Positions 51,263 through 63,533 of a stretch of DNA of 64,000 nucleotides are shown one piece after another; the stretch's first letter is position 1; each line of letters opens with the position of its first letter. Origin of the DNA: an uncultured Dehalococcoidales bacterium. GTDB lineage: Bacteria > Chloroflexota > Dehalococcoidia > E44-bin15. The position numbers and the translations under genes are program-made. The stretch is from NCBI GenBank assembly GCA_964428725.1, contig CAYRYW010000001.1, positions 73,238 to 137,237 of the forward strand, written 5' to 3'. Below the pieces are notes generated by a model. It saw only the letters and a list, made by a program, of their open reading frames with translations, made no database searches and had not been told where the DNA came from.

Positions 51263-51529
51263 ACCTCAAAACCCGATTATATATTATGGTATTCGCCTTT
51301 TCAATCCAGAGAATATGCGACCGCTCGCGGCGCTGCAGTGTCAGCAGGGTGTTTGACTTTTTTCTCCGCATGGATTAATATGCCACAATGCCCATTTTAA
51401 GCGGGGCACTGTTAAAATAAATTTGCTTAAGGATATATAAAATTTGACATTTGCTGTTAAATATGATAAATATATCATGTATAAGAATAGTCAGCAGTTT
51501 GTCCCTGTAATGTGGAGAGTGGAATTTCT

Positions 51530-53155
51530 ATGGCGGATGATAAGCGCGCAGCGGTGAACAAGGCCAAAGAGGTCGAGCGCGTTGTCAGGTTCGGCAACGT
51601 GCCTACCGTCGATCTGCATCAGGTGCAGCCCCAGAATGAAGCCCTGGCCCTGATACCGGAGACGGCGGCGTTGAGGTACAACATACTGCCCCTGACCCTG
51701 AACGATGATACCTTAACTGTGGTCACAGATTACCCGGATGATTTCCAGCTCATCGATACCATCTCCCGGTTGACCAGCAAAAAGGTCACCATGGTCACGC
51801 CCATCAGGGGGAACCTCCGCGATTCCATAACAGGGCATTACAAGAAGTACACCGAGGAAGGGTTCGACCAGACCGTGCTCGATGAGGCGATGGATGAGTC
51901 CTACATGGACGAATCGGTGCTGGACATCATCGCCCCCATGGAGCTGGTCAAAGAGGAAGATGTTGACCAGGATGTCGTTAAGGCGGCGCAGGACGCCCCC
52001 ATAATCAAGGCGGTCGACATGATCCTGACGCAGGCGGTGAGGGAGCGCGCCTCAGATATCCACATTGCCCCCGAGGAGAAGGTGCTGAAGATACGCTACC
52101 GCATAGACGGTGTGCTGCATGATGCCCTCAATCTGCCCCCGGAGATATTGTCGCCGATAGTTACCCGTATCAAGATCCTGGCCAATATGAATATTGCCGA
52201 GCGCCGCCGTCCACAGGACGGCTCTTTCTCCGGCAAGATATCCGGAAAGGTGATCGACTTCCGCGTCGGCACCATCGGCACCAACTGGGGCGAGTATGTC
52301 GTCATGCGCGTGCTGGAGAAGAACTTCAGCCTGTTCGAGCTGGACGGTATCGGCATGCCGCCGTATATAAAGGAGACATACGAGCAGTGTCTGGCGGCGC
52401 CGTTCGGCATGATCATCATCAGCGGGCCCACCGGCTCGGGGAAGACGACCACCCTGTATGCATCCCTGCTGAAGCTCAATTCAGATGAGCTCAATATCAT
52501 GAGCATCGAGGACCCGGTGGAGTACAAGTTCAAGGGCGTGCGACAGATACAGGTGAACCGGGCAGCCAATATCACCTTCGCTGCCGGGCTGCGGGCCGCC
52601 ATGCGCATGGACCCCGACGTGATACTCGTAGGTGAGATCCGCGACCAGGAGACCGCGGAGGTAGCCGTCAACGCCGCGCTTACCGGTCACCTCGTGCTGA
52701 CATCGCTGCATGCCAACGACTCAGTGGGCGCGCTGGTCCGCCTGATAGACCTCGGCGTGGAGCCGTTCCTGGTGACTTCTGCTGTTATTGCCACTGCATC
52801 GCAGCGACTGCTCAGAAGGACCTGCCCCAAGTGTGCCGAAACCAAGAAGGCTGCCATGGCGGATGTCCTGGCTTATAAACAGGTCACCGGCAAGGAGCGG
52901 GAGGAGTTCACTTACGGGGCTGGCTGTGCCAACTGTAATTTCAAGGGATACCGGGGCAGGATAGGCGCATTTGAACTGTTGCCCATCACCGACTCGATAC
53001 GGAGCCTGGTCGCCAGGAGCGCCGGTGCCCCGGAGATCAAGGCGCAGGCGTTGAAAGAGGGAATGCTGCCCATGCGCCATCACGGCATGATGCTGGCCAA
53101 GGAGGGTGTGACCACGCCCAGCGAGGTGGCGCGTCACGTGTTCACCATAGGTTAA
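51530..53155 (+). CDS. pilB: Type IV pilus assembly ATPase PilB/GspE
   Basis: ASDIH, RRPQDG, GPTGSGKTTT, SIEDPVE, DPDVILVGEIRD, tetra-Cys motif. Confidence 0.93.
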   Translation: MADDKRAAVNKAKEVERVVRFGNVPTVDLHQVQPQNEALALIPETAALRYNILPLTLNDDTLTVVTDYPDDFQLIDTISRLTSKKVTMVTPIRGNLRDSITGHYKKYTEEGFDQTVLDEAMDESYMDESVLDIIAPMELVKEEDVDQDVVKAAQDAPIIKAVDMILTQAVRERASDIHIAPEEKVLKIRYRIDGVLHDALNLPPEILSPIVTRIKILANMNIAERRRPQDGSFSGKISGKVIDFRVGTIGTNWGEYVVMRVLEKNFSLFELDGIGMPPYIKETYEQCLAAPFGMIIISGPTGSGKTTTLYASLLKLNSDELNIMSIEDPVEYKFKGVRQIQVNRAANITFAAGLRAAMRMDPDVILVGEIRDQETAEVAVNAALTGHLVLTSLHANDSVGALVRLIDLGVEPFLVTSAVIATASQRLLRRTCPKCAETKKAAMADVLAYKQVTGKEREEFTYGAGCANCNFKGYRGRIGAFELLPITDSIRSLVARSAGAPEIKAQALKEGMLPMRHHGMMLAKEGVTTPSEVARHVFTIG

Positions 53156-53321: not shown

Positions 53322-54536
53322 ATGAAATTCACCTACGTGGGAAAGAAGCCCAAAGGGCAGACGGTGAAGGGCGTCATGGAGGCTGAATCGGTAGAGAAGG
53401 CCGAAGAGACATTGTGGAAAGCAGAAATAACCATTGTGTCTCTCAAACAGAAGAAAGCTTTCCCCACCATGCAGGAACTGTTCCCCACTATGTACGGCAT
53501 CAAGCGTCAGGAGATCGTGACCTTCACGCGCGACCTGCATACGCTCCTCAGCGCCGGCATCGGCATCTACCCATCGCTGCAGATGCTGCACGAGCGTTCC
53601 GCCAAGCCCAGCCTTAAATCCATGATACGTGACGTTCTGCTGTCCGTGGAAGGCGGCAACTCTTTCTCCGATGCCTGCGCCAAGCACCCCAAGGTATTCT
53701 CTCCTTTTTATCTCAGGATGACCAAGGTGGGTGAGGAGATCGGTAACCTGGAGCAGATGCTGGGACAGATCACCGTGCAGATGACCAAGGAAGCGGCTAT
53801 CGTGAAGAAGGTCAAGGGCGCGCTGACCATACCCGCGATCACGTTTAGCGTAGCCATCGTGGCCATCATCGCCCTGGTCACCTTCGTCGTGCCGGCGATG
53901 AAAGGCCTGTTCGAGCAGATGGGCGGCGAGCTTCCCATGATAACCAAGATAATGGTTGCTGTATCCGAGGTTTTCACCGGATACTCGTACATCATCTTCC
54001 CGGCGATTATTATCGCAATTGTAGGCAGTATCTTCTATTTCAGGACGAAACGCGGCAAGAGAACCATGGACACCATCAAGCTGAAGATACCCATACTCAA
54101 GGATGTACAGGTCAAGGGGGGCATGGCGCGCACCGCCCGCAATATGTCCATCCTTCTGGGCGGCGGCATACCCATAACCGAGGCGCTGGACCTCATCGTC
54201 CAGACCAGCGATAACGTACATTTCAAGGAAGCTTTCGTAAAGGTGAGAAGCGACGTGTCCGAGGGCCAATTGCTGTCGCAGGCGATGGCCGGCCAGCGTA
54301 TCTTCCCCAAGCTGCTGACGCAGGTGATAAGCGTGGGTGAGCTTACCGGACGGCTGGAGCCCAACCTTGAGTCCGCCGCTGACTTCTACGAGATGGAGAC
54401 CGATGACGCGGTGGCGCGGGCGACCTCCCTGCTGACGCCTATCATGACCGTGTTCCTGGGAGGATTCGTGGCGCTGATAGCCCTGTCCATGTATCAGCCG
54501 ATATACGGCATAGCGGGTGGCCTGGGAGGCAAATAG
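53322..54536 (+). CDS. pilC: Type IV pilus platform protein PilC/GspF
   Basis: FTRDL..LL.AG, GEEIGNL and GELTGRL repeats; terminal MYQPIY. Confidence 0.93.
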   Translation: MKFTYVGKKPKGQTVKGVMEAESVEKAEETLWKAEITIVSLKQKKAFPTMQELFPTMYGIKRQEIVTFTRDLHTLLSAGIGIYPSLQMLHERSAKPSLKSMIRDVLLSVEGGNSFSDACAKHPKVFSPFYLRMTKVGEEIGNLEQMLGQITVQMTKEAAIVKKVKGALTIPAITFSVAIVAIIALVTFVVPAMKGLFEQMGGELPMITKIMVAVSEVFTGYSYIIFPAIIIAIVGSIFYFRTKRGKRTMDTIKLKIPILKDVQVKGGMARTARNMSILLGGGIPITEALDLIVQTSDNVHFKEAFVKVRSDVSEGQLLSQAMAGQRIFPKLLTQVISVGELTGRLEPNLESAADFYEMETDDAVARATSLLTPIMTVFLGGFVALIALSMYQPIYGIAGGLGGK

Positions 54537-54631: not shown

Positions 54632-55537
54632 GTGAGGCACATGATACGGGGTTTTACTCTGCTGGAGGTGATTATCGCCATGGCCCTGCTGTCAATGTGC
54701 GTTATAGGCTTCCTGCAGGCGCTCAACGTCAGCATGGTGGGCACGGACAGGGTGAGGCAGACCAACTACGCCGTGGAGTTGACGCGCTCACAGATGGAAT
54801 ACATACAGCAGCAGGACTTCATACTGCACAACGACAGCGAGCCCAGCAAATACGGCAACGTCTCAGAGATTCCCCCGGGATGGAACGCATCCGCCATATC
54901 CACCACGATCTATAACGTAACCGATGCCAACGGCTCGCCGATGGACCACCGCGTGCTGCAGGAGGTGGTGGTGGAAGTGACATACAGCGGTGGTAAAACC
55001 CTTGAGATGAGGGACTACAAGTCCCCGCGCGAGGGGAGCTTTGTGACATCCGGCTCCGGCTGGCTGGTGACCAGCGTGATAGATATACCCTTGCTGCCGT
55101 CTGCCTTCCAGTTTCTCTGGTGGGGTGGCGAGTACTGGGGATACTACTACACCTTCGAGACGGGGACGACCACGTCTGAGCAAGGCATGATAAGCGGCCT
55201 GTGGCAGTTCACCGCATCAGCCTGGTTTATCTTCGGCGTGGTTGGCAACCCGGCTTCGGTCTACCTGTACAGACACTCCGATGTGGTTGACGAGTTCCCC
55301 GGCGAGCGCGGGATGATTGCGCTGAAGCCAGCGGACGTCCCCTCGGGTTATCTGGTAAAGGCAACGAGCCATCTCTGGGGCACCGGCGACAGGGAGGTGA
55401 CCGCCCTCGAGTCGGACCCTGTGGATCCCGGCGAGTATACCCTATTCTTCTATAATGAGGGTATCAGCATTTTGGGCCTTTTAGGATGGAGCCGGGACAT
55501 ATACCCGTCGACGGCGACCATCACCTACTACAAGTAA
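54632..55537 (+). CDS. Prepilin-type protein (PilV/GspI-like) with extra C-terminal domain
   Basis: Class III signal peptide RG|FTLLEVIIAMALL. Confidence 0.85.
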   Translation: MRHMIRGFTLLEVIIAMALLSMCVIGFLQALNVSMVGTDRVRQTNYAVELTRSQMEYIQQQDFILHNDSEPSKYGNVSEIPPGWNASAISTTIYNVTDANGSPMDHRVLQEVVVEVTYSGGKTLEMRDYKSPREGSFVTSGSGWLVTSVIDIPLLPSAFQFLWWGGEYWGYYYTFETGTTTSEQGMISGLWQFTASAWFIFGVVGNPASVYLYRHSDVVDEFPGERGMIALKPADVPSGYLVKATSHLWGTGDREVTALESDPVDPGEYTLFFYNEGISILGLLGWSRDIYPSTATITYYK

Positions 55538-55558: not shown

Positions 55559-58500
55559 ATGCTGAAAGGCAAAAGAGGTTTCACCTTACTGGAGATACTG
55601 ATGGTCATGATCATCACCGGCATGACGCTGCCGGTGGTGGGCATGGCGCTGTACATGCTGCTCCACGTGCCCGCCAAGGAAACCGGCAAGCTGACAGTCA
55701 TCAATGACGTGAACCTGGTGCTAAGCTGGGTGCATGAGGATATCAACCGCGGGCAGTTCTTCTCCGGCTCCCCCGGCTGGCTCAAGGGGGTGCACACCCT
55801 GGATTTCAACACCAGCGCCGGCACGGACCAGCAGGCGTGGCAAGCGCTGGGCATACCCGCCAGCCCCAGCGCCGGCGGCACCGAATGCTCCGACTACGGG
55901 CTTATCAATGCCTCTGACAACCAGCGGTGGACCACCTCTCTGGCGACCGCGGACAAGGAGATAAATGCGCAGTGGTTCCAGTTCACCGTGCCGGAGGGCA
56001 ACGAGGGGATAGAGCTGGATGAAATAGAGACGATGGTGGTCTCCTGGAAGGGCTACGGTGAATCGCGCGACGAGTATAATACGGAGATAAAGCTGTGGAA
56101 CGTGACCAGCAGCGCGTGGGAGGAGTTCAAGCCCCGGGCTTACCGCGCGGCCATGGGCACCGAGGGCTGGCTCAGCGGCAGGAGAACCAACGTCATGGAT
56201 TACATCGACGGCAACCGGCGCATATACGTATTGGCCACCAGCGAGCATTACGTAGAGGGCTGCCCGTTCCTGTTCGGGTGGGACGGCCAGCGCTACCGCT
56301 ACATAGATGCCACGCTGATGCACGCCTTCTTCAGGAGGTATGAGACCACCACGTATCACCAGACAGCGGACCTGGAGCCGGAGAACGGCTGTTACGACCT
56401 GATGCTGTTCCAGGGGCTGCCGGAGACGAGCTACGTCAATGAACTGGGGCTGTGGGCGGTGGACCATCCGCAGGGGACATCCATAGTGCTGGAGCGCAAC
56501 GACCCGCCCGGTGGACTGGGCGTCATACATACGATAAGCCATCCGCAGGCGGTTGCCGCCGTGGACCGGGAGGGCAACGATGTCACAGAATTGCTGGCAC
56601 GTCAGGACGGAGCATACTGGGAATCCAATCTCTCCGGGAAGGACTTCAGCAAGACTGAGAACCTTAATGACTGGCTGGTACTGACCCTGCCCGAGGGGCG
56701 CGATAGCGGAATCGCCAGGCTACTCATAGATGTCAGGCAATCCCCTCTGGGCGAGTACTACCACTGGTACTTCCTGCACTACATACTGGGCACGCCCAAT
56801 GTGGATTACATCAGGGACCTCATCGAGAACGACCGGGATTTCATACCGCACTTTGACCTGCAGATGTGGCTGTCCACCGCCTTCCTGGTCCAGTACTGGG
56901 ACGGCTCGGCGTGGGTGGATTACGCCTCGCTGCCCGGCCTCGATATGCATTTCGGCAATCCCCAGGTGGTGCCCATAGACCTGAGCAAGATAGAAGGCAA
57001 CCGGATAAGGCTGTATACCCCCTTGGGACTGCGCGAGATAGACTACATCGCGGTGGACTACTCCCCGGACGAAGCGTTTGCTGTGACCGAAATGACGCCT
57101 GCGGCGGCAACCCAGCACATGCTCGACGGTTCCACGGCGGACATCCTGCAGGACATCGCCTCCCCCGATGACGCATATGCGGTACTGGAGCAGGGGGGCT
57201 ACATCAATTACAGGTTCGGCGAGCTTGCGCCGCCCGCCGCGGGGATGCAGCGGACGTTCGTGCTGCCGGTGGGGGGCTACTACTACCTCGACGGGCCGGA
57301 GGTGCCCGAGGACAAGATGGGCAACCTGGGCCTGTGGGAAGAGCTGGCATACGTCCCCTATGCCTATTTGAAGTGGGTGCTGCCCCGATATGCCAACCTG
57401 CAGGCGGACCCGTCATGGGAATACTACCGCTTCAACACGGCCAGTCCGCCGTTCGACACGGATAAGGAATTCTATTCCCTGCACACGAACTATATCAAGC
57501 TCACCTTCATCACCGAGGGCACCGAGCTGGGCTACGTATCGGAGAATTATCCGGGGAACACCTACGGCGGTTTCCACTGGGTGGATCGTACCGCCGCAGA
57601 GAGTACAACATATACTTCACATTACTACTGGGTCAACGAGAGCAGTCAGATGATACGTCAGGAATGGCAGAACAACGATTTGGTCTCCACCACGGTCCTG
57701 GCGCGCAACATCCCGAACTACGATGATATCACCTTCGAGTATTTCACCGCGGGGGCCGAGCTGGGAGGCGCGCTCCTGCCTTATCTGGTAGTAAACGTAC
57801 TGGCAAGTGCGGGTACGGGGGATTTGTATGTGGAAGCATACGGTTCCTCCCATATTGCTTTGAGGAGCACTACACTCAGCCGGGGCATGGCCGTGATTGC
57901 CACCGAGGGTCTGGTGCCGAATGCCAGCTCGATAAACGTGACGGGGAGCGGGCTGATAGTCGACGGCCGCGTGCGCTCGTTCGGCAACATCTCGGTGACC
58001 GGCGAGGACGTGATCTTCACCGGCAGGACGGAGGCGGCGGGTTACATAATCGATAGCGCCAGCTCAATCATAGAGCCGGATCAGTTTGCCATCCTGCAGG
58101 CAACGGACTGGGCTCTGGTAGCGGATGATTTCGTGAAGGAGTGGTGGAACCCGGCCTCCAACGAGTATATCTGGGCCGCCGGCGATGTGGATCTGGATAG
58201 CGAGTCGCAGGACGATAACGGTAAGCTTATATGGGATACGACGGATGCGGCAAAACCTGTCCTGAAGCCGGGGGTGTACTATGCCGTGAACGGAAACATC
58301 AGCCTGGGAACAACTAACGTCACCGGCATGGTGACCCTCATGGGCGACAGGGTTAAGGTGGACGCCGATAATTCCACCCTGTCACCTTTCTGCAGCGGCG
58401 TTTTGCTGTATGCCACCGGCAGCCACGATGATGCGATCGAGTTCTCCGGCGACGGCGGCGCCTGGTGCGGCAACCTGTTTGCCCCCGAAGGCGGCGTGCT

Positions 58501-58606
58501 GGTGACCGGGGACAGGGATGAGGATTTCTACCTGTTCGGTGCCATCGCGGCGAAGAAGTTCAGATACGAGGGCATCGGCACTAAAATCTTCCGTATAAGG
58601 TTCTAA
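55559..58606 (+). CDS. Giant (1015 aa) prepilin-type protein (PilW/GspJ-like) with inserted domains
   Basis: KRG|FTLLEILMVMII; large internal insert; C-terminal beta-helix-like repeats. Confidence 0.85.
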   Translation: MLKGKRGFTLLEILMVMIITGMTLPVVGMALYMLLHVPAKETGKLTVINDVNLVLSWVHEDINRGQFFSGSPGWLKGVHTLDFNTSAGTDQQAWQALGIPASPSAGGTECSDYGLINASDNQRWTTSLATADKEINAQWFQFTVPEGNEGIELDEIETMVVSWKGYGESRDEYNTEIKLWNVTSSAWEEFKPRAYRAAMGTEGWLSGRRTNVMDYIDGNRRIYVLATSEHYVEGCPFLFGWDGQRYRYIDATLMHAFFRRYETTTYHQTADLEPENGCYDLMLFQGLPETSYVNELGLWAVDHPQGTSIVLERNDPPGGLGVIHTISHPQAVAAVDREGNDVTELLARQDGAYWESNLSGKDFSKTENLNDWLVLTLPEGRDSGIARLLIDVRQSPLGEYYHWYFLHYILGTPNVDYIRDLIENDRDFIPHFDLQMWLSTAFLVQYWDGSAWVDYASLPGLDMHFGNPQVVPIDLSKIEGNRIRLYTPLGLREIDYIAVDYSPDEAFAVTEMTPAAATQHMLDGSTADILQDIASPDDAYAVLEQGGYINYRFGELAPPAAGMQRTFVLPVGGYYYLDGPEVPEDKMGNLGLWEELAYVPYAYLKWVLPRYANLQADPSWEYYRFNTASPPFDTDKEFYSLHTNYIKLTFITEGTELGYVSENYPGNTYGGFHWVDRTAAESTTYTSHYYWVNESSQMIRQEWQNNDLVSTTVLARNIPNYDDITFEYFTAGAELGGALLPYLVVNVLASAGTGDLYVEAYGSSHIALRSTTLSRGMAVIATEGLVPNASSINVTGSGLIVDGRVRSFGNISVTGEDVIFTGRTEAAGYIIDSASSIIEPDQFAILQATDWALVADDFVKEWWNPASNEYIWAAGDVDLDSESQDDNGKLIWDTTDAAKPVLKPGVYYAVNGNISLGTTNVTGMVTLMGDRVKVDADNSTLSPFCSGVLLYATGSHDDAIEFSGDGGAWCGNLFAPEGGVLVTGDRDEDFYLFGAIAAKKFRYEGIGTKIFRIRF

Positions 58607-58628: not shown

Positions 58629-60335
58629 ATGAAACTAGCGAGGCGCGGGGGCAAGGGTCAACTGCTTATACTGGTGCTGGGCATCATGGCAATAGGGATG
58701 CTGGTTATCGCTCCGCTGCTGGCATACGTAGACCTCAGCCTGCGCCTGAGCCTGAGGTCCCACGGCAAGACCGCCGGATACTATGCCGCCGAGGCCGGAG
58801 TTCATATGGCCATCGGTGACCTGTACGTGGGGCAGGACATCATGGACAAAACGTACACCGGGGAGATGAATAACTATAAGTTCATATCGAATGTCAGCCC
58901 GGCTTATGGCACCGCACCGCAGGATGTCACCGAGGCTTACTTCGACCCGGGCGTATCCATGGCACTGCGCCCCCTGGCATCGGGTGATACTCATGAATAC
59001 TCATTGGTAGCGCTCAAGGGAAAGGCGTTGAAGATAAGCTGGGCGGCATACACCAACAAGGACGCTACCAATAAATCCGCCTGGGATTTCAATTCCGGCA
59101 CCACCGAGGACCTCAATACGCTTATAGAGCTGTTCGACAGCGACGGAAACCCCGTGGCATCCAAGAGGGCCAGCACGGACGAGCGCCATGCCAGCGATCA
59201 GGCGCGGCTCATAGCCAACACCCTGTACGTGCCGGGAGAAGATATCGAAGGCGGCACATATACTGTGAGATTCACCAACGAGGCTACAAGGGCAGGCAAT
59301 CCCGCATACAGCTGCTCGCAGCACTTCTCCCGTGACGCCGATGAGTTGTTCGTTTTCAACGGTACCATCAAGAACACCTTTACCGGCGGCGCGTGGCACA
59401 ACTGCAGCGATTTCTTCAGCGCAGGCGGCGAGGTCACCCTCCTTGCCATAAATGAGGACCAGGGCGACGCGACAGGTCAGGTGAACACCTTCTCATTCTT
59501 CTGCGATTTCGTGCAACTGAATGTGACCTCCCTGGTGGAAGGGAACACCACCGTCACCACATACAACTACTCGCAGGCGGAGTCCGGCATGGGCGGCAAC
59601 CGGAGCTATACCGGCGCGCTGAACGTGAGCAGCGGCGGTACTCTGGGACAGCCCGGCAATGCGATCTATCACAGCCCGTCGTGGTACGGTGGCGAATACT
59701 TCGGCGATGATGAGGACAGGTATGCCACTAATGTAAAGGACAGGATCCCATTCGTTACCGGATTCACCCACCCCAGCGCCAATTTCTCTGAAATGACCAA
59801 CGACCAGTATTTGAACATTTCAGCAGCGGACGGCGCGCGCGTCATGGCTACAGACCCCCGTCCGGTGAACAAGAAGAACGCTTGTACGTGGCACGTGTTC
59901 ACCATAGATGAGAACCCCAGCGATGTTATTCAGTTAGACATCCACTGGGAAGGCTACCAGACCAGGGCGGCGCCGGCGTTTCTGTGGTATGGCACCGTTG
60001 AGATTCAAGACGATGACGACCTGTATCTGCTCATGTGGAATTACGCCGAGGACGCGAATAGCGACGGACTGGACGGCAAGTATCACATACTGGATAAAAA
60101 GCAGGCGAACGCCGGGTTCACCTGGATCAAGATTGCGCAGGGCGGATACGCGGATTACCTGATCACGTCAACATCATATAAGGATGAGAATGACAACGAT
60201 GCGATAGACGAGGGCGAGGAAGTGGTGATGGTTACCTGTTACCTGATACAGGTGCCCGGACCTTCTATCTGGTGGGAAGAGCAGTATATCGACATAGTAT
60301 CATGGAACGTGCATCTGTATCCCGGAAGGCAATAA
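58629..60335 (+). CDS. PilX/GspK-like minor pilin with inserted domains
   Basis: RRGGKG|QLLILVL with no Glu5, followed by GYYAAEAG, typical of PilX-like proteins. Confidence 0.75.
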   Translation: MKLARRGGKGQLLILVLGIMAIGMLVIAPLLAYVDLSLRLSLRSHGKTAGYYAAEAGVHMAIGDLYVGQDIMDKTYTGEMNNYKFISNVSPAYGTAPQDVTEAYFDPGVSMALRPLASGDTHEYSLVALKGKALKISWAAYTNKDATNKSAWDFNSGTTEDLNTLIELFDSDGNPVASKRASTDERHASDQARLIANTLYVPGEDIEGGTYTVRFTNEATRAGNPAYSCSQHFSRDADELFVFNGTIKNTFTGGAWHNCSDFFSAGGEVTLLAINEDQGDATGQVNTFSFFCDFVQLNVTSLVEGNTTVTTYNYSQAESGMGGNRSYTGALNVSSGGTLGQPGNAIYHSPSWYGGEYFGDDEDRYATNVKDRIPFVTGFTHPSANFSEMTNDQYLNISAADGARVMATDPRPVNKKNACTWHVFTIDENPSDVIQLDIHWEGYQTRAAPAFLWYGTVEIQDDDDLYLLMWNYAEDANSDGLDGKYHILDKKQANAGFTWIKIAQGGYADYLITSTSYKDENDNDAIDEGEEVVMVTCYLIQVPGPSIWWEEQYIDIVSWNVHLYPGRQ

Positions 60336-60416: not shown

Positions 60417-61022
60417 ATGACAATGCAGCCGGCGCCGGAACGGCGTCCTAAGAAGATAGATCTAAATCTACTGCCGCCAGAGTATCTCCCCAAAAAGGCG
60501 TCTCGTTTAACTATCGGTTTGATCGTTGCTGCCATCATCCTTGCCTGCGTGCCGTGGCCTTTCCTGGTCATGCAGATGGGCGTCAAAAACGACAACAGCG
60601 TGCTCGATACGCAGCTGAAAGCCCTGAAACAACAGCTCGCTGTGATAAACAACGAGATAAACCAGTGCAATGCTGTACAGGCTGATATCGATGCGTGCGA
60701 GGAGCAATATGGCAGCATGTGGGATGACCTCGAGACGGTACAGGATATGGTATACGTCTGGTCCCAGATAATGGCGGATGTGCAGGAGGTGCCCAGGGGT
60801 GCTGGCGGCTCGCTGGGGGATATAAGGCAGACCGGCGATACCATCACTGTTAAAGGGGAGTTCGCCAGAGAGAAGTATGTTTATGAATATTCCATCATGC
60901 TTTCCGAGACAGGGCATTTCTCCTCGGTCACCATAAAGTCGATGTCACTCCAGGAAGGTGAATCCGGCAATGTTTACAATTTCGACATTGAGGCGAAGCT
61001 GAAAGAGGGTGGCAGCCAGTGA
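60417..61022 (+). CDS. PilN-like alignment protein
   Basis: IDLNLLPPEY, single TM segment, coiled coil, ferredoxin-like C-terminal domain. Confidence 0.75.
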   Translation: MTMQPAPERRPKKIDLNLLPPEYLPKKASRLTIGLIVAAIILACVPWPFLVMQMGVKNDNSVLDTQLKALKQQLAVINNEINQCNAVQADIDACEEQYGSMWDDLETVQDMVYVWSQIMADVQEVPRGAGGSLGDIRQTGDTITVKGEFAREKYVYEYSIMLSETGHFSSVTIKSMSLQEGESGNVYNFDIEAKLKEGGSQ

Positions 61023-61567
61023 AGAAATTTGAGCGCATTCAGCTTATACTGTCGGGGGTTTGCCTGCTGCTTCTGGGGCTGGCCATCTTCTTTGCTGTGG
61101 GTCTGTTGCAGGAGAAAGGCCGGACATCCAAGCTGGAGAAGGACATTGCCACTACAGAGAACCAGATCGATAATATCGAGGGCACATGCGTACTTATCGA
61201 GAAGCAGCTCCAGCTCGAGGAATGTCAGAATAAGCTGCAAACGGAGTCCCCGTTCCCTGCAGACGTCATCGATAATAAAGAGGTTACCAATGCCGTAATA
61301 GCCGTGGTGAGTGATGCCCGCCTGAATATGGACCGGCTGGATTACCGGGGGACATCGTCATACCAAATAGGGGACACGCAATATACAAAGGCGACATACG
61401 CCTTGCAGTGCAGCAGCCAGATAGGTAAGGAGAGCAGGTTCCTGACCTTGCTGGAGCTTTTCGAGGAGATGAGGGAAGAGAAATATCCTACGCTCTTAGT
61501 CGATAATATAAATCTGCCCGACGGGGATCCGAGGATTACGCTGGATATTATCATTATTACCCAGTAG
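61019..61567 (+). CDS. PilO-like alignment protein
   Basis: N-terminal TM segment plus coiled coil; positioned between pilN-like and pilM-like genes. Confidence 0.6.
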   Translation: MKKFERIQLILSGVCLLLLGLAIFFAVGLLQEKGRTSKLEKDIATTENQIDNIEGTCVLIEKQLQLEECQNKLQTESPFPADVIDNKEVTNAVIAVVSDARLNMDRLDYRGTSSYQIGDTQYTKATYALQCSSQIGKESRFLTLLELFEEMREEKYPTLLVDNINLPDGDPRITLDIIIITQ

Positions 61568-61593: not shown

Positions 61594-62718
61594 GTGATGG
61601 CGATGGCGGAAGACAGAGAGCTAACCAGGGCGGAGAAGCGGGCCGCAGCGCGCGCGGAGAAGGCACGGGCACAGGAGGAAGCCAGGGCTAAGAAAGAGGA
61701 GGAGAAAAGAGCCAGAGAGGAAGCGCGCAAGGCCCGGGCGGAAGAGCGCAAGGCTAAGAAGGGTGAGGAGAAGCCCGGGGAGGCTGAGAAAGCGGATACC
61801 GCTAAAAAGGAAAAGAAAGCCAAGCCCCCCAAAGCTGGTAAGGGGGAGAAGCGCATCGTGACCATGAGCATAGAGGGCAACGACCTGCGGTTGCTGTATT
61901 TCTCCGGCAAGGAAATTGAATCCTGGGACAGCGTGGCCTTCGCCCCCAATCTGTTGAAGGTCGGGCAGGTGTCCGAGCCTGAGGGGCTGTCGGCGGTGAT
62001 AAAGAGTGCGCTTGAGGGCAGGGATATAACCCGCGCCCAGTTCCTGTGTTCCCTGCCGGGGCTCAGGTCCGTATCCCGGGTGTTGACCATACCCAGGACC
62101 GGTAAAAAAGAGATGGCGGATGTGGTTCAGCGCGAGGTAAACAAGCTGATGACCGTTTCTATGGAAGATAACTATCTTCACTGGCAACCCCTGACCGCTG
62201 AGAAGTCGGAGCAGATGGAGGTCTTTGTCCTGGCAGTTCCCAAGGAGCCCTTCGATATATTCATGGAAGCCCTCCGCATGGCCGAAATCAAGCCTGCGGC
62301 AATAGATTTGAAACCGCTTGCCCTGGCGCGGGCGGTGAATCAGAGGGATGCCATAATAGCCAGCGGCGAGAGTAACAGCATGGAGCTCGTTATAATTGTC
62401 GATGATACGCCGGTGCTGATACGCAGCGTGTTCCTCGGGGAGGGGATCGTGACGCAGGACTACGCCGTGGGCCGCATCAGCGACGAGCTGGGACGTACCA
62501 TACTGACCTATAACGAGATCAACAAGGATAAGCCTCTGGATCCGGAGGTTCCCATTTATCTCTGCGGTGGCTCCGCCGGAGGCGTTCCCTTCGCCCTGAA
62601 CGTGGCGGCGCTTACCGGGCGCACCGTGCAGCCGCTGGAGCCGCCGATACCGTATCCTGACGATTTTCCCGTCGCTGACTTCATGGTCAACATCGGTCTC
62701 CTGCTCAAGGTCTTATGA
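61594..62718 (+). CDS. pilM: PilM-like actin-fold protein with charged N-terminal extension
   Basis: AIDLKPLALAR, IYLCGGSA and terminal VNIGLLLK, typical of PilM. Confidence 0.75.
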   Translation: MMAMAEDRELTRAEKRAAARAEKARAQEEARAKKEEEKRAREEARKARAEERKAKKGEEKPGEAEKADTAKKEKKAKPPKAGKGEKRIVTMSIEGNDLRLLYFSGKEIESWDSVAFAPNLLKVGQVSEPEGLSAVIKSALEGRDITRAQFLCSLPGLRSVSRVLTIPRTGKKEMADVVQREVNKLMTVSMEDNYLHWQPLTAEKSEQMEVFVLAVPKEPFDIFMEALRMAEIKPAAIDLKPLALARAVNQRDAIIASGESNSMELVIIVDDTPVLIRSVFLGEGIVTQDYAVGRISDELGRTILTYNEINKDKPLDPEVPIYLCGGSAGGVPFALNVAALTGRTVQPLEPPIPYPDDFPVADFMVNIGLLLKVL

Positions 62719-63533
62719 CAGATTGCCTTATCATCCTTGGCTTTGCCTTCTTCGGTATGGCGGTTGGCAGTTTCCTCAACGTCTGCATCGATCGCCTGCC
62801 CGCTGGAGAGTCAATCATACGTTTGCCATCGCATTGCGAATCGTGCAAGCGCAGGATACGGTGGCGCGATCTCGTTCCCGTGTTCAGCTACATGTGGCTG
62901 CGCGGACGCTGCCGCCACTGCGGGGAGCGCATCCCCCTGCGCCTGCCGCTGGTGGAGCTGGCGACGGGCGTAATCTTCGGGTTGCTGGCGTGGCACTACG
63001 GCCTCAATCCTCAGCTGATAATGGCACTGGTTTACGTCTGCCTGTTCCTGCTCATCTTCGTCATCGATCTGGAGCAGCAAATGGTGCTCTACGCAGTGGT
63101 GCTCCCGGCGATAGCCCTGGCATTCATTTTCTCCTTTTTCTGGGGAGGGTTCGGCGACTACTGGCCGCAATCGGGAATCGCCAATACCTACCTCGACGGG
63201 CTAGCCTGCGCCTTCTTCGGGGGAGCCGTGGGTTTCGTCTTCATGATAGTTCCGTATATCATCGCGCGAATGCACTACGGAGAAGAGGGCATGGGGCAGG
63301 GCGATATCTACCTTGCCGTCCTTATCGGCATGGCAACCGGCTTTCCTCTGGTCATAATGGCATTGATCATGGGCATCATTGCCGGTGGCATCGCGGCGGT
63401 GGCGTTGATAGCGTTGAAAATCAGGAAGAGGAAGGATCCCATAGCGTTCGGGCCTTTCCTGGCCGCTGCGGCGATGCTGATCCTCGTCTGGGGCGCTCCG
63501 ATAATGGAGTGGTACTCCGGGCTCGTCTATTAA
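62715..63533 (+). CDS. pilD: Prepilin peptidase (A24)
   Basis: GSFLNVCIDRLP, SHCESC...GRCRHC, FVID, MGQGD and AFGPFL motifs. Confidence 0.95.
   Translation: MTDCLIILGFAFFGMAVGSFLNVCIDRLPAGESIIRLPSHCESCKRRIRWRDLVPVFSYMWLRGRCRHCGERIPLRLPLVELATGVIFGLLAWHYGLNPQLIMALVYVCLFLLIFVIDLEQQMVLYAVVLPAIALAFIFSFFWGGFGDYWPQSGIANTYLDGLACAFFGGAVGFVFMIVPYIIARMHYGEEGMGQGDIYLAVLIGMATGFPLVIMALIMGIIAGGIAAVALIALKIRKRKDPIAFGPFLAAAAMLILVWGAPIMEWYSGLVY

Follow-up and report, generated by a model that had tools for sequence, protein, structure and literature searches.

The many functions that simple type IV filaments have gained are at present explained by modular pilins and, to our knowledge, nearly all of those described are end-to-end fusions. 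The window analyzed here, a stretch of 64,000 nucleotides (nt) from an uncultured Dehalococcoidales bacterium (contig CAYRYW010000001.1, positions 73,238 to 137,237), encodes a pilin of 1015 amino acids (aa), P0001, where comparison with short orthologues places a self-contained ∼600-aa cassette in the junction between the pilin helix and the pilin sheet. Described modular type IV pilins include PilB of S. sanguinis, with a vWA module, and PilC of the same organism, with a lectin module (Raynaud et al. 2021, PMC8179133). Peptidase modules on pilins have also been reported, and a tip location has been argued for the bulky PilB (PMC8179133). P0001 resembles PilB and PilC in having a class III signal peptide, a pilin module, a bulky non-pilus display domain and a predicted tip location, and in coming from an organism that apparently has no outer-membrane secretin. 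The S. sanguinis modules, however, are grafted after the pilin module via a short linker, whereas that of P0001 lies between helix α1 and the first β-strand and splits the pilin head. P0001 also differs from the S. sanguinis pilins in containing a domain within a domain, a further β-helix after the sheet, and an uncharacterized cargo. In GspK of the type II secretion system (T2SS) and ComZ of Thermus, an extra domain is inserted within the β-sheet (PMC8179133). As in these members of tip complexes, the extra domain of P0001 is inside the pilin fold and not appended to it, but the insertion in GspK and ComZ is intra-sheet and has no second level of nesting, whereas that of P0001 is at the α1/β1 junction. 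No sequence or profile similarity between P0001 and GspK or ComZ was detected. P0001 is in function a modular pilin, with an insertion site unlike those of the appended modules or of the intra-sheet insertions. The parts of the gene are given below in window coordinates, with the basis for each in brackets.

55559..58606, + strand: whole gene, P0001, predicted modular minor pilin, 1015 aa (open reading frame (ORF) list and translation; full-length orthologues at 41–60% identity)
55559..55765, + strand: class III signal peptide and helix α1, aa 1–69 (TIGR02532, N_methyl, predicted helices 10–64, alignment with P0016 at 36% identity)
55784..56257, + strand: N-terminal part of a β-sandwich, aa 76–233 (Pfam PF27237 AF_1625_C, predicted all-β 77–229)
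56258..57433, + strand: NEST, the nested ∼400-aa domain, aa 234–625 (homology to CRTAC1-like C termini, predicted structure, conservation)
57473..57514, + strand: return strand YSLHTNYIKLTFIT, aa 639–652, read as the last strand of the sandwich, displaced by NEST (predicted strand 641–652, contiguous in P0022, co-occurrence of profile matches)
57551..57868, + strand: pilin β-sheet, aa 665–770, starting YGGFHWVDRT (follows α1 directly in short orthologues)
57869..58603, + strand: β-helix-like tail, aa 771–1015 (in all short orthologues, weak DUF7305 match, Foldseek)

The N terminus of P0001 consists of MLKGKRG followed, beyond the predicted cleavage site after G7, by FTLLEILMVMIITG, where Gly-1, Phe+1 and Glu+5 make up a canonical prepilin leader, such that the short basic leader, the terminal Gly, the hydrophobic run and Glu+5 that define a class III signal peptide are all present. 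The prepilin signal scores 19.3 bits with NCBIfam TIGR02532, above the cut-off of 16.3, and Pfam N_methyl (aa 3–22) scores 19.8 bits, just below its cut-off of 21.2. The full-length protein was modeled with AlphaFold2 (AF2) on a 27-sequence alignment, giving a mean predicted local distance difference test score (pLDDT) of 76.8 and a predicted template modeling score (pTM) of 0.46. The model comprises a helix (10–64), an all-β region (77–229), a confident domain (234–625), a strand (641–652), a sheet (666–767) composed of strands 666–676, 683–692, 697–704, 707–715, 742–751 and 758–767, and an all-β tail (779–1014). The predicted helix and sheet are adjacent in sequence in the short orthologues. 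P0016 (465 aa), encoded in a same-family genome at the syntenic position, where its gene follows pilC and that of the first pilin, aligns to residues 1–69 and 669–1005 of P0001 and to nothing between, and in P0037 (397 aa) the helix runs straight into the first strand (...RAQDFSLAPEPLYGSFYWMDRT), with ∼5 residues between the two. Six further short forms have the same helix–sheet–β-helix layout, and the α1/β1 junction measures 5–44 aa in the short orthologues (397–465 aa). Since these proteins align only to the flanks, residues ∼70–664 of P0001 constitute an insertion at the α1/β1 junction. A preliminary description of the window, made from its sequence, had proposed a pilin head split by an insert of ∼590 aa, with a normal class III signal peptide, a helix end at GSPGWLKG and pilin strands resuming at PGNTYGGFHWVDRT, and had suggested alignment with short orthologues as a check. 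That alignment maps the insertion point between residues 69 and 665–669, with ∼600 aa between α1 and the sheet in the comparisons with P0016 and P0037; the helix-end motif is found at aa 70–77 (nt 55766–55789), the pilin strands resume from aa 665 onward (nt 57551), and the TIGR02532 score agrees with a normal signal peptide.

The insert itself appears to be composite. PF27237 AF_1625_C is listed as a match for P0001 and its orthologues in the precomputed annotation, from which it was taken without a score. The predicted strand 641–652, of 12 residues, is flanked by low-confidence linkers on both sides. In P0022 (623 aa), a syntenic protein from which NEST is absent, the sandwich and its last strand are contiguous (...RKIYFLVETPYHKDPGSKIKVTLCTNYIKLML...) and the pilin sheet then follows; the locus is identical in arrangement (aspS, then pilB, pilC, pilin, [X], a 575-aa protein, pilN ... 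pilM, pilD). Hidden Markov models (HMMs) of the segments were built for this work and scanned on the 185 proteins gathered, of which 41 matched the HMM of the N-terminal part of the sandwich. The return-strand HMM matched 26 of these 41 sandwich-bearing proteins, as compared with 1 of the 132 NEST-only proteins (Fisher p = 3e-19), and the lone match among the latter falls within NEST and is spurious. The contiguity in P0022, the co-occurrence of strand and sandwich, and the presence of other cargo at the same point in multiheme proteins (see below) all argue for nesting. Comparison thus shows strand 639–652 to be, as judged from sequence, the last strand of the sandwich formed by residues 76–233, with NEST inserted before it, and P0001 to have three nested levels, the pilin containing the AF_1625_C sandwich and the sandwich containing NEST between its penultimate and last strands. 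The same components had been picked out in the preliminary description. Its sandwich-like module at the start of the insert corresponds to the PF27237 match at 76–233 and the all-β region 77–229, its nested ∼400 aa starting at CPFLFGWDG begin at aa 235 (nt 56261), and its displaced last strand, YSLHTNYIKLTF, lies at aa 639–650 (nt 57473), where P0022 and the co-occurrence statistics (p = 3e-19) bear it out.

Modeled alone (aa 234–640) on a 101-sequence alignment, NEST reached a pLDDT of 91.9 and a pTM of 0.90, and this high confidence in isolation indicates an autonomous compact fold. The model has two β-sandwich halves plus helical hairpins. Conservation reaches at least 88% across the 101 sequences for Cys235, Pro236, Gly243, Glu289, Asp302, His303, Gly321, Asp350, Trp354, Trp452, Asp537, Arg565, Gly573, and Tyr575. 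An exhaustive phmmer search returned 1711 relatives at E ≤ 1e-3, 717 of them at E ≤ 1e-10, most being ∼500–650 aa long with NEST at the C terminus. NEST has no model in the Pfam copy searched and no precomputed family, no relative was found in the PDB by sequence search or by a profile of the 101 sequences, and searches of Pfam, NCBIfam and the PDB with whole P0001 found the N-terminal pilin motif alone. Foldseek was run with the full-length and NEST models against the PDB and BFVD. For NEST it returned weak, partial matches (query TM-score (TMq) ≤ 0.26) to reelin subrepeats, CBM35 of Xyn30D, Eph ligand-binding domains, discoidins, and phage tail or minor structural proteins. Because these matches are weak and partial, NEST is not assigned to any known fold family, and the jelly-roll likeness of the model is likewise weak and partial. 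Autoprocessing of the Hint/intein type, considered on account of the invariant N-terminal Cys, was rejected, as the Foldseek matches included no Hint fold though the PDB contains many inteins. NEST is defined here as a large uncharacterized family for which the fold is predicted with confidence and a set of residues is conserved.

The preliminary description had linked part of the insert to the C-terminal region of CRTAC1/ASPIC-UnbV-type proteins, and the searches agree: FG-GAP/UnbV_ASPIC proteins match aa 227–580 of P0001 directly after their own UnbV_ASPIC match. The CRTAC1-like C-terminal region is homologous to NEST of P0001 at 22–36% identity (BLASTP E = 2e-13 to 4e-15 over ∼350–400 residues, with phmmer matches as well), and the order of sandwich, SCPF...NEST and final YHTRYI-type strand in these proteins looks the same as in P0001. 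Whereas CRTAC1-like proteins are composed of an FG-GAP propeller, UnbV_ASPIC and a long C-terminal region, some with TPR, P0001 has the AF_1625_C sandwich, and Pfam found neither FG-GAP/VCBS repeats nor UnbV_ASPIC (PF07593) in it, both of which are present in the distant P0009 and P0013. By its predicted domain content, P0001 is not a CRTAC1 family member but shares the C-terminal domain of that family, and the function of NEST would also explain the so far unexplained C-terminal half of the bacterial CRTAC1-like proteins.

The sandwich–NEST–strand cassette is also found outside pilins, in P0019, P0023, P0172, P0026, P0031, P0040, P0044, P0080, P0159, and P0166. P0019, a 678-aa protein from a same-family genome (L011 2174–4207, G022:C22), consists of a signal sequence, sandwich, NEST, return strand, and a C-terminal transmembrane anchor ending LRRLKAR, and is plainly the cassette as a cell-surface protein. 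P0172 (Methanomicrobia) and P0023 have DUF7288 N termini and contain the whole cassette at 37–41% identity over 96–97% of the insert, carried on a type IV-style N-terminal helix as it is carried on the pilin in P0001. P0024 combines the archaeal Pilin_N of Pfam with NEST, and a protein from a Thermococci metagenome-assembled genome (L015 7326–9200) has a pilin-like N terminus, a PKD domain and NEST. These archaeal pilin-like proteins (P0024, P0172, P0023, and that of L015) share NEST with P0001 at 37–45% identity, but have archaeal N termini and neither the bacterial pilin sheet nor the β-helix tail, and their cassette comes after the helix or after Ig/PKD/B-repeat spacers, whereas that of P0001 splits the pilin head. 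In the L015 protein and P0024, N termini of the AINPVIAVVMMAIVV or Pilin_N type are followed by PKD, InlB B-repeat or Big_5 spacers, with NEST last, and the gene of the former is apparently outside any pilus gene cluster. A single-protein scan of genome contigs for relatives gave no match; an alignment-based scan keyed on NEST motifs gave mostly CRTAC1-like loci, plus the nearest archaeal relatives. Identity to NEST of P0001 is 39–42% for archaeal copies and ∼25% for those of Acidobacteriaceae-type CRTAC1-like proteins. The presence of the same cassette on bacterial and archaeal pilins shows movement between Bacteria and Archaea, and the cassette seems to be a common means of presenting an uncharacterized binding domain at pilus tips.

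In a second bacterial pilin lineage, represented by P0028 and P0032 (1242–1560 aa), the α1/β1 junction is empty and the cassette, together with InlB B-repeats, comes after the pilin sheet, which is read as an independent capture. P0001 combines, as expected of a modular pilin, a pilin signature with non-pilus domains, AF_1625_C and NEST both occurring in many non-pilin proteins. A module appended through a linker is not what P0001 has; that layout is seen in P0028 and P0032. Giant CxxCH-rich proteins of 2000–2550 aa (P0088, P0091, P0095, P0142, and P0156) have two AF_1625_C sandwiches each, the one normal in order and the other circularly permuted. In most sandwiches of these multiheme proteins, the strands ...IYILARAKHDG and HYSLNTDYVELEV enclose two FN3 domains and NEST, while the first sandwich of P0142 encloses ∼260 residues where NEST is not detectable. 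In the permuted second copies the return strand directly precedes the N-terminal part of the sandwich, an order that is expected if the first and last sandwich strands are neighbors and the ends of the domain lie close together; we infer that such close ends allow AF_1625_C to sit in a loop of its host. The giant multiheme proteins look like extracellular proteins with built-in binding cassettes, and AF_1625_C is an insertion-tolerant host domain that type IV filament subunits of bacteria and archaea have in common. In P0039, NEST adjoins a pectate-lyase-like β-helix.

At a single syntenic position, the pilins form a natural series with an empty junction (397–465 aa), the sandwich only (623 aa), or the sandwich and NEST (1015–1033 aa). 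In a maximum likelihood tree of the scaffold, built on α1, sheet and tail only, the insert-bearing pilins are monophyletic (99/98) with the short P0037 as sister, and the sandwich-only P0022 falls inside the subclade of P0001–P0004 (100/100), the sister subclade of which is also full-length. The preliminary description had proposed nested domain insertions; that these arose one after the other in this pilin is an idea that the scaffold tree, with its one acquisition and later loss in P0022, does not favor. In its explicit form, with the sandwich gained first, NEST later, and P0022 as the intermediate, this history accounts well for the existence of P0022, which is exactly the predicted form at the same locus; it is nonetheless considered improbable, as the sandwich–NEST–strand unit exists ready-made outside pilins (e.g. 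P0019, P0023, P0172, and P0026), CRTAC1-like proteins also show the order of sandwich, NEST and YHTRYI-type strand, and P0022 lies within an otherwise full-length clade with a full-length sister (100/100, 99/98). Most simply, the tree is read as one capture event in which the cassette arrived in its nested form, with NEST later lost cleanly on the way to P0022. Loss is favored over a two-step gain because of the placement of P0022 within the full-length clade, and capture of a nested cassette is consistent with its independent existence in P0019 and in archaeal and other proteins.

In a separate NEST tree, from which the CRTAC1-like copies were left out, the pilin NESTs group with archaeal ones (Hadarchaeota, MSBL1, Thermococci, Methanomicrobia, and the Pilin_N protein) in a clade supported at 100/99, which a long branch separates from the ∼500-aa NEST-only proteins. 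Conflicting NEST and scaffold phylogenies were observed for the orthologues P0005, P0169, P0006, P0020, and P0170; in this P0005 clade, P0169 groups with P0006 by its NEST and with P0005 by its scaffold. Moreover, P0021 and P0171 are not pilins and have WGxxxxxVG-type repeats, yet their NESTs, 56–58% identical to those of the pilins, branch from among the pilin copies. The topology conflict and the non-pilin NESTs inside the pilin clade suggest recent exchange or recombination of cassettes between alleles and proteins. A pre-assembled domain-in-domain cassette can, on this evidence, enter the core of a pilin head, be lost again, and swap between alleles.

The tail has a different history from the insert. 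DUF7305 (PF23981) scores 12.7 bits on P0001 and 18 bits on P0016, short of its gathering score of 27, and Foldseek matched the tail to the β-helices of ice-binding proteins (DUF3494) with a probability of 0.9 and a target TM-score (TMt) of 0.37. As a tail is present in all short orthologues, it is ancestral to the pilin family and not an addition. The β-helix-like tail of the preliminary description was accordingly recovered as a structure (all-β at 779–1014 in the AF2 model), but it is no added part, since the short orthologues have it too.

P0001 is encoded within a type IV pilus (T4P) assembly cluster, the other genes of which are as follows.

51512–53155, + strand: PilB assembly ATPase (Pfam T2SSE, 1e-121)
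53322–54536, + strand: PilC platform protein (Pfam T2SSF, 4e-51)
54632..55537, + strand: upstream minor pilin P0018, 301 aa, GspI/PilV-like N terminus (N_methyl 27.9 bits; gspI and PilV matches sub-threshold)
58629..60335, + strand: downstream PilX-like protein P0017, 568 aa, hydrophobic N terminus without Glu5 (translation)
60417–61022, + strand: PilN (Pfam PilN)
61019–61567, + strand: 182-aa protein in the PilO position (gene order)
61594–62718, + strand: PilM (Pfam PilM_2)
62715–63533, + strand: PilD prepilin peptidase (Pfam A24_N_bact, Peptidase_A24)

PilB, PilC, PilM, PilN and PilD, and with them both the prepilin peptidase and assembly genes expected beside a prepilin, are thus co-encoded with P0001, and this arrangement is kept in all orthologous loci seen. 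The gene order of GspI/PilV-like protein, P0001 and PilX-like protein agrees with the PilW-like position given to P0001 in the preliminary description, with HMMs of the GspJ/PilW families giving N-terminal, sub-threshold matches only; a PDB profile search with the short-pilin alignment matched only α1 of other pilins. A search of the genome that contains the window, which is 70% complete, yielded no secretin, although control genomes did give matches, a result in line with the monoderm pilus proposed earlier; a same-family orthologue carries a Chloroflexota label at NCBI. The search for PilY1 gave no signal in any of the control genomes. Two tandem genes for 185-aa major-pilin-like proteins (KGKRGFTLIELLIVMVILAILAGVVV...) lie 0.4–1.8 kb past the end of the window (L094 1175–1732 and 1961–2518), at the following positions of its own contig.

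G000:C1 137674–138231 and 138460–139017: 185-aa major-pilin-like genes

With these two genes the cluster does have candidate major pilins, and in the orthologous locus L097 two N_methyl genes likewise come after pilD.

The interpretation favored here, with fair if far from complete confidence, is that P0001 is a minor pilin of the modular kind, belonging to a T4P that lacks a secretin, with a nested cassette in which NEST serves as a tip-displayed adhesin. Extrapolating from what is known of T4P and T2SS, PilD of the cluster would cleave the class III signal peptide, and α1 with its 4–7-stranded sheet would form an ordinary pilin module that, together with the GspI/PilV-like and PilX-like proteins encoded on either side, would prime the fiber. 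Major pilins would then polymerize beneath this priming complex and P0001 would end up at the tip. The sandwich is probably a stalk, its two ends close together and fitting into a loop, and NEST is most probably the ligand-binding head of the adhesin, composed of jelly-roll-type sandwiches, because only jelly-roll, CBM, Eph, reelin, and phage tail-protein matches were obtained. Several points weigh against this interpretation. The pTM of the full-length model is low (0.46) and the sandwich reaches a pLDDT of only 55–85, so the nesting stands on comparative evidence and not on strand pairing in three dimensions; the term binding module for NEST follows from the class of its predicted fold, with structural matches that are weak (TMq ≤ 0.26); the GspJ/PilW identity of P0001 comes from gene order only; and the absence of a secretin, PilY1 or PilT is unproven at 70% genome completeness. 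Finally, the invariant Cys and the conserved His, Asp and Glu of NEST could mark a metal or catalytic site.

This last point leads to the alternative of a pilus tip that carries an enzyme, NEST being catalytic, for instance in the degradation or modification of glycans or other polymers, or a metalloenzyme, and reaching its substrate by way of the pilus. Cys235, Glu289, Asp302, His303, Asp350, Asp537, and Arg565 are nearly invariant in the 101 homologues, as would fit a catalytic or metal center, NEST occurs in giant multiheme proteins and beside pectate-lyase-like β-helices (P0039), and modular pilins bearing peptidase modules provide a precedent (PMC8179133). Yet NEST matched no enzyme fold or family in Pfam, the PDB or Foldseek, its best structural matches are non-catalytic (CBM35, the Eph ligand-binding domain, reelin, and β-sandwich parts of glycoside hydrolases), and acidic and aromatic residues are conserved just as typically in Ca2+-dependent sugar-binding sites, which makes an enzymatic role unlikely, if the most plausible of the alternatives. 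It is harder still to regard P0001 as a surface protein that is processed as a prepilin and remains membrane-anchored and unpolymerized, in the manner of archaeal pilin-like anchored proteins. The great bulk of the protein (a 600-aa insert and a 245-aa β-helix) would suit such a role, as would the free-standing P0019, which with its signal sequence and C-terminal anchor is plainly surface-displayed, but P0001 keeps Glu5 and a normal pilin sheet, its short orthologues are ordinary minor pilins, and its gene lies between two minor-pilin-like genes in a complete assembly cluster, an arrangement conserved in the orthologous loci seen; this explanation is therefore given little weight. An origin of the ORF as an assembly chimera, which the preliminary description had named among the findings that would undo its proposal, or as a pseudogene fusion can be practically dismissed. 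Such an origin was considered only on account of the fragmentation of the metagenome assembly (141 contigs) and nothing in favor of it was found, whereas the reading frame is open and intact with no internal stops, the identical protein occurs on four contigs from several sources, a near-identical 1016-aa variant exists, and at least nine clusters of full-length orthologues (41–60% identity) have the same length, architecture and locus. Base composition gives no clear foreign signature, with 57–63% G+C in the insert and 54–60% in the flanks.

Beyond the tip adhesin proposed for P0001, one may speculate, as a long shot, that NEST is a widespread extracellular contact module exchanged among bacteria and archaea of anoxic sediments, displayed on type IV filaments and giant multiheme cytochromes alike for contact with one and the same kind of partner, be it the surface of a syntrophic organism, a mineral, or a redox-active substrate. 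The invariant Cys/His/Asp/Glu set would then form a metal or reactive center, and AF_1625_C would be a general insertion-tolerant adaptor by which cargo is plugged into the loops of unrelated hosts.

Runs of X or N break ORFs beside the G015 orthologue (L002) and downstream of the major pilins (L094). In the neighboring PilX-like protein P0017, residues 380–444 show a borderline match to the N-terminal part of the sandwich (independent E-value of 1e-3 with the HMM built here; BLAST E = 0.13), and a return-strand-like segment, FSFFCDFVQLNV, lies ahead of this sandwich-like part at residues 286–305, in the same permuted order as in the giant multiheme proteins.

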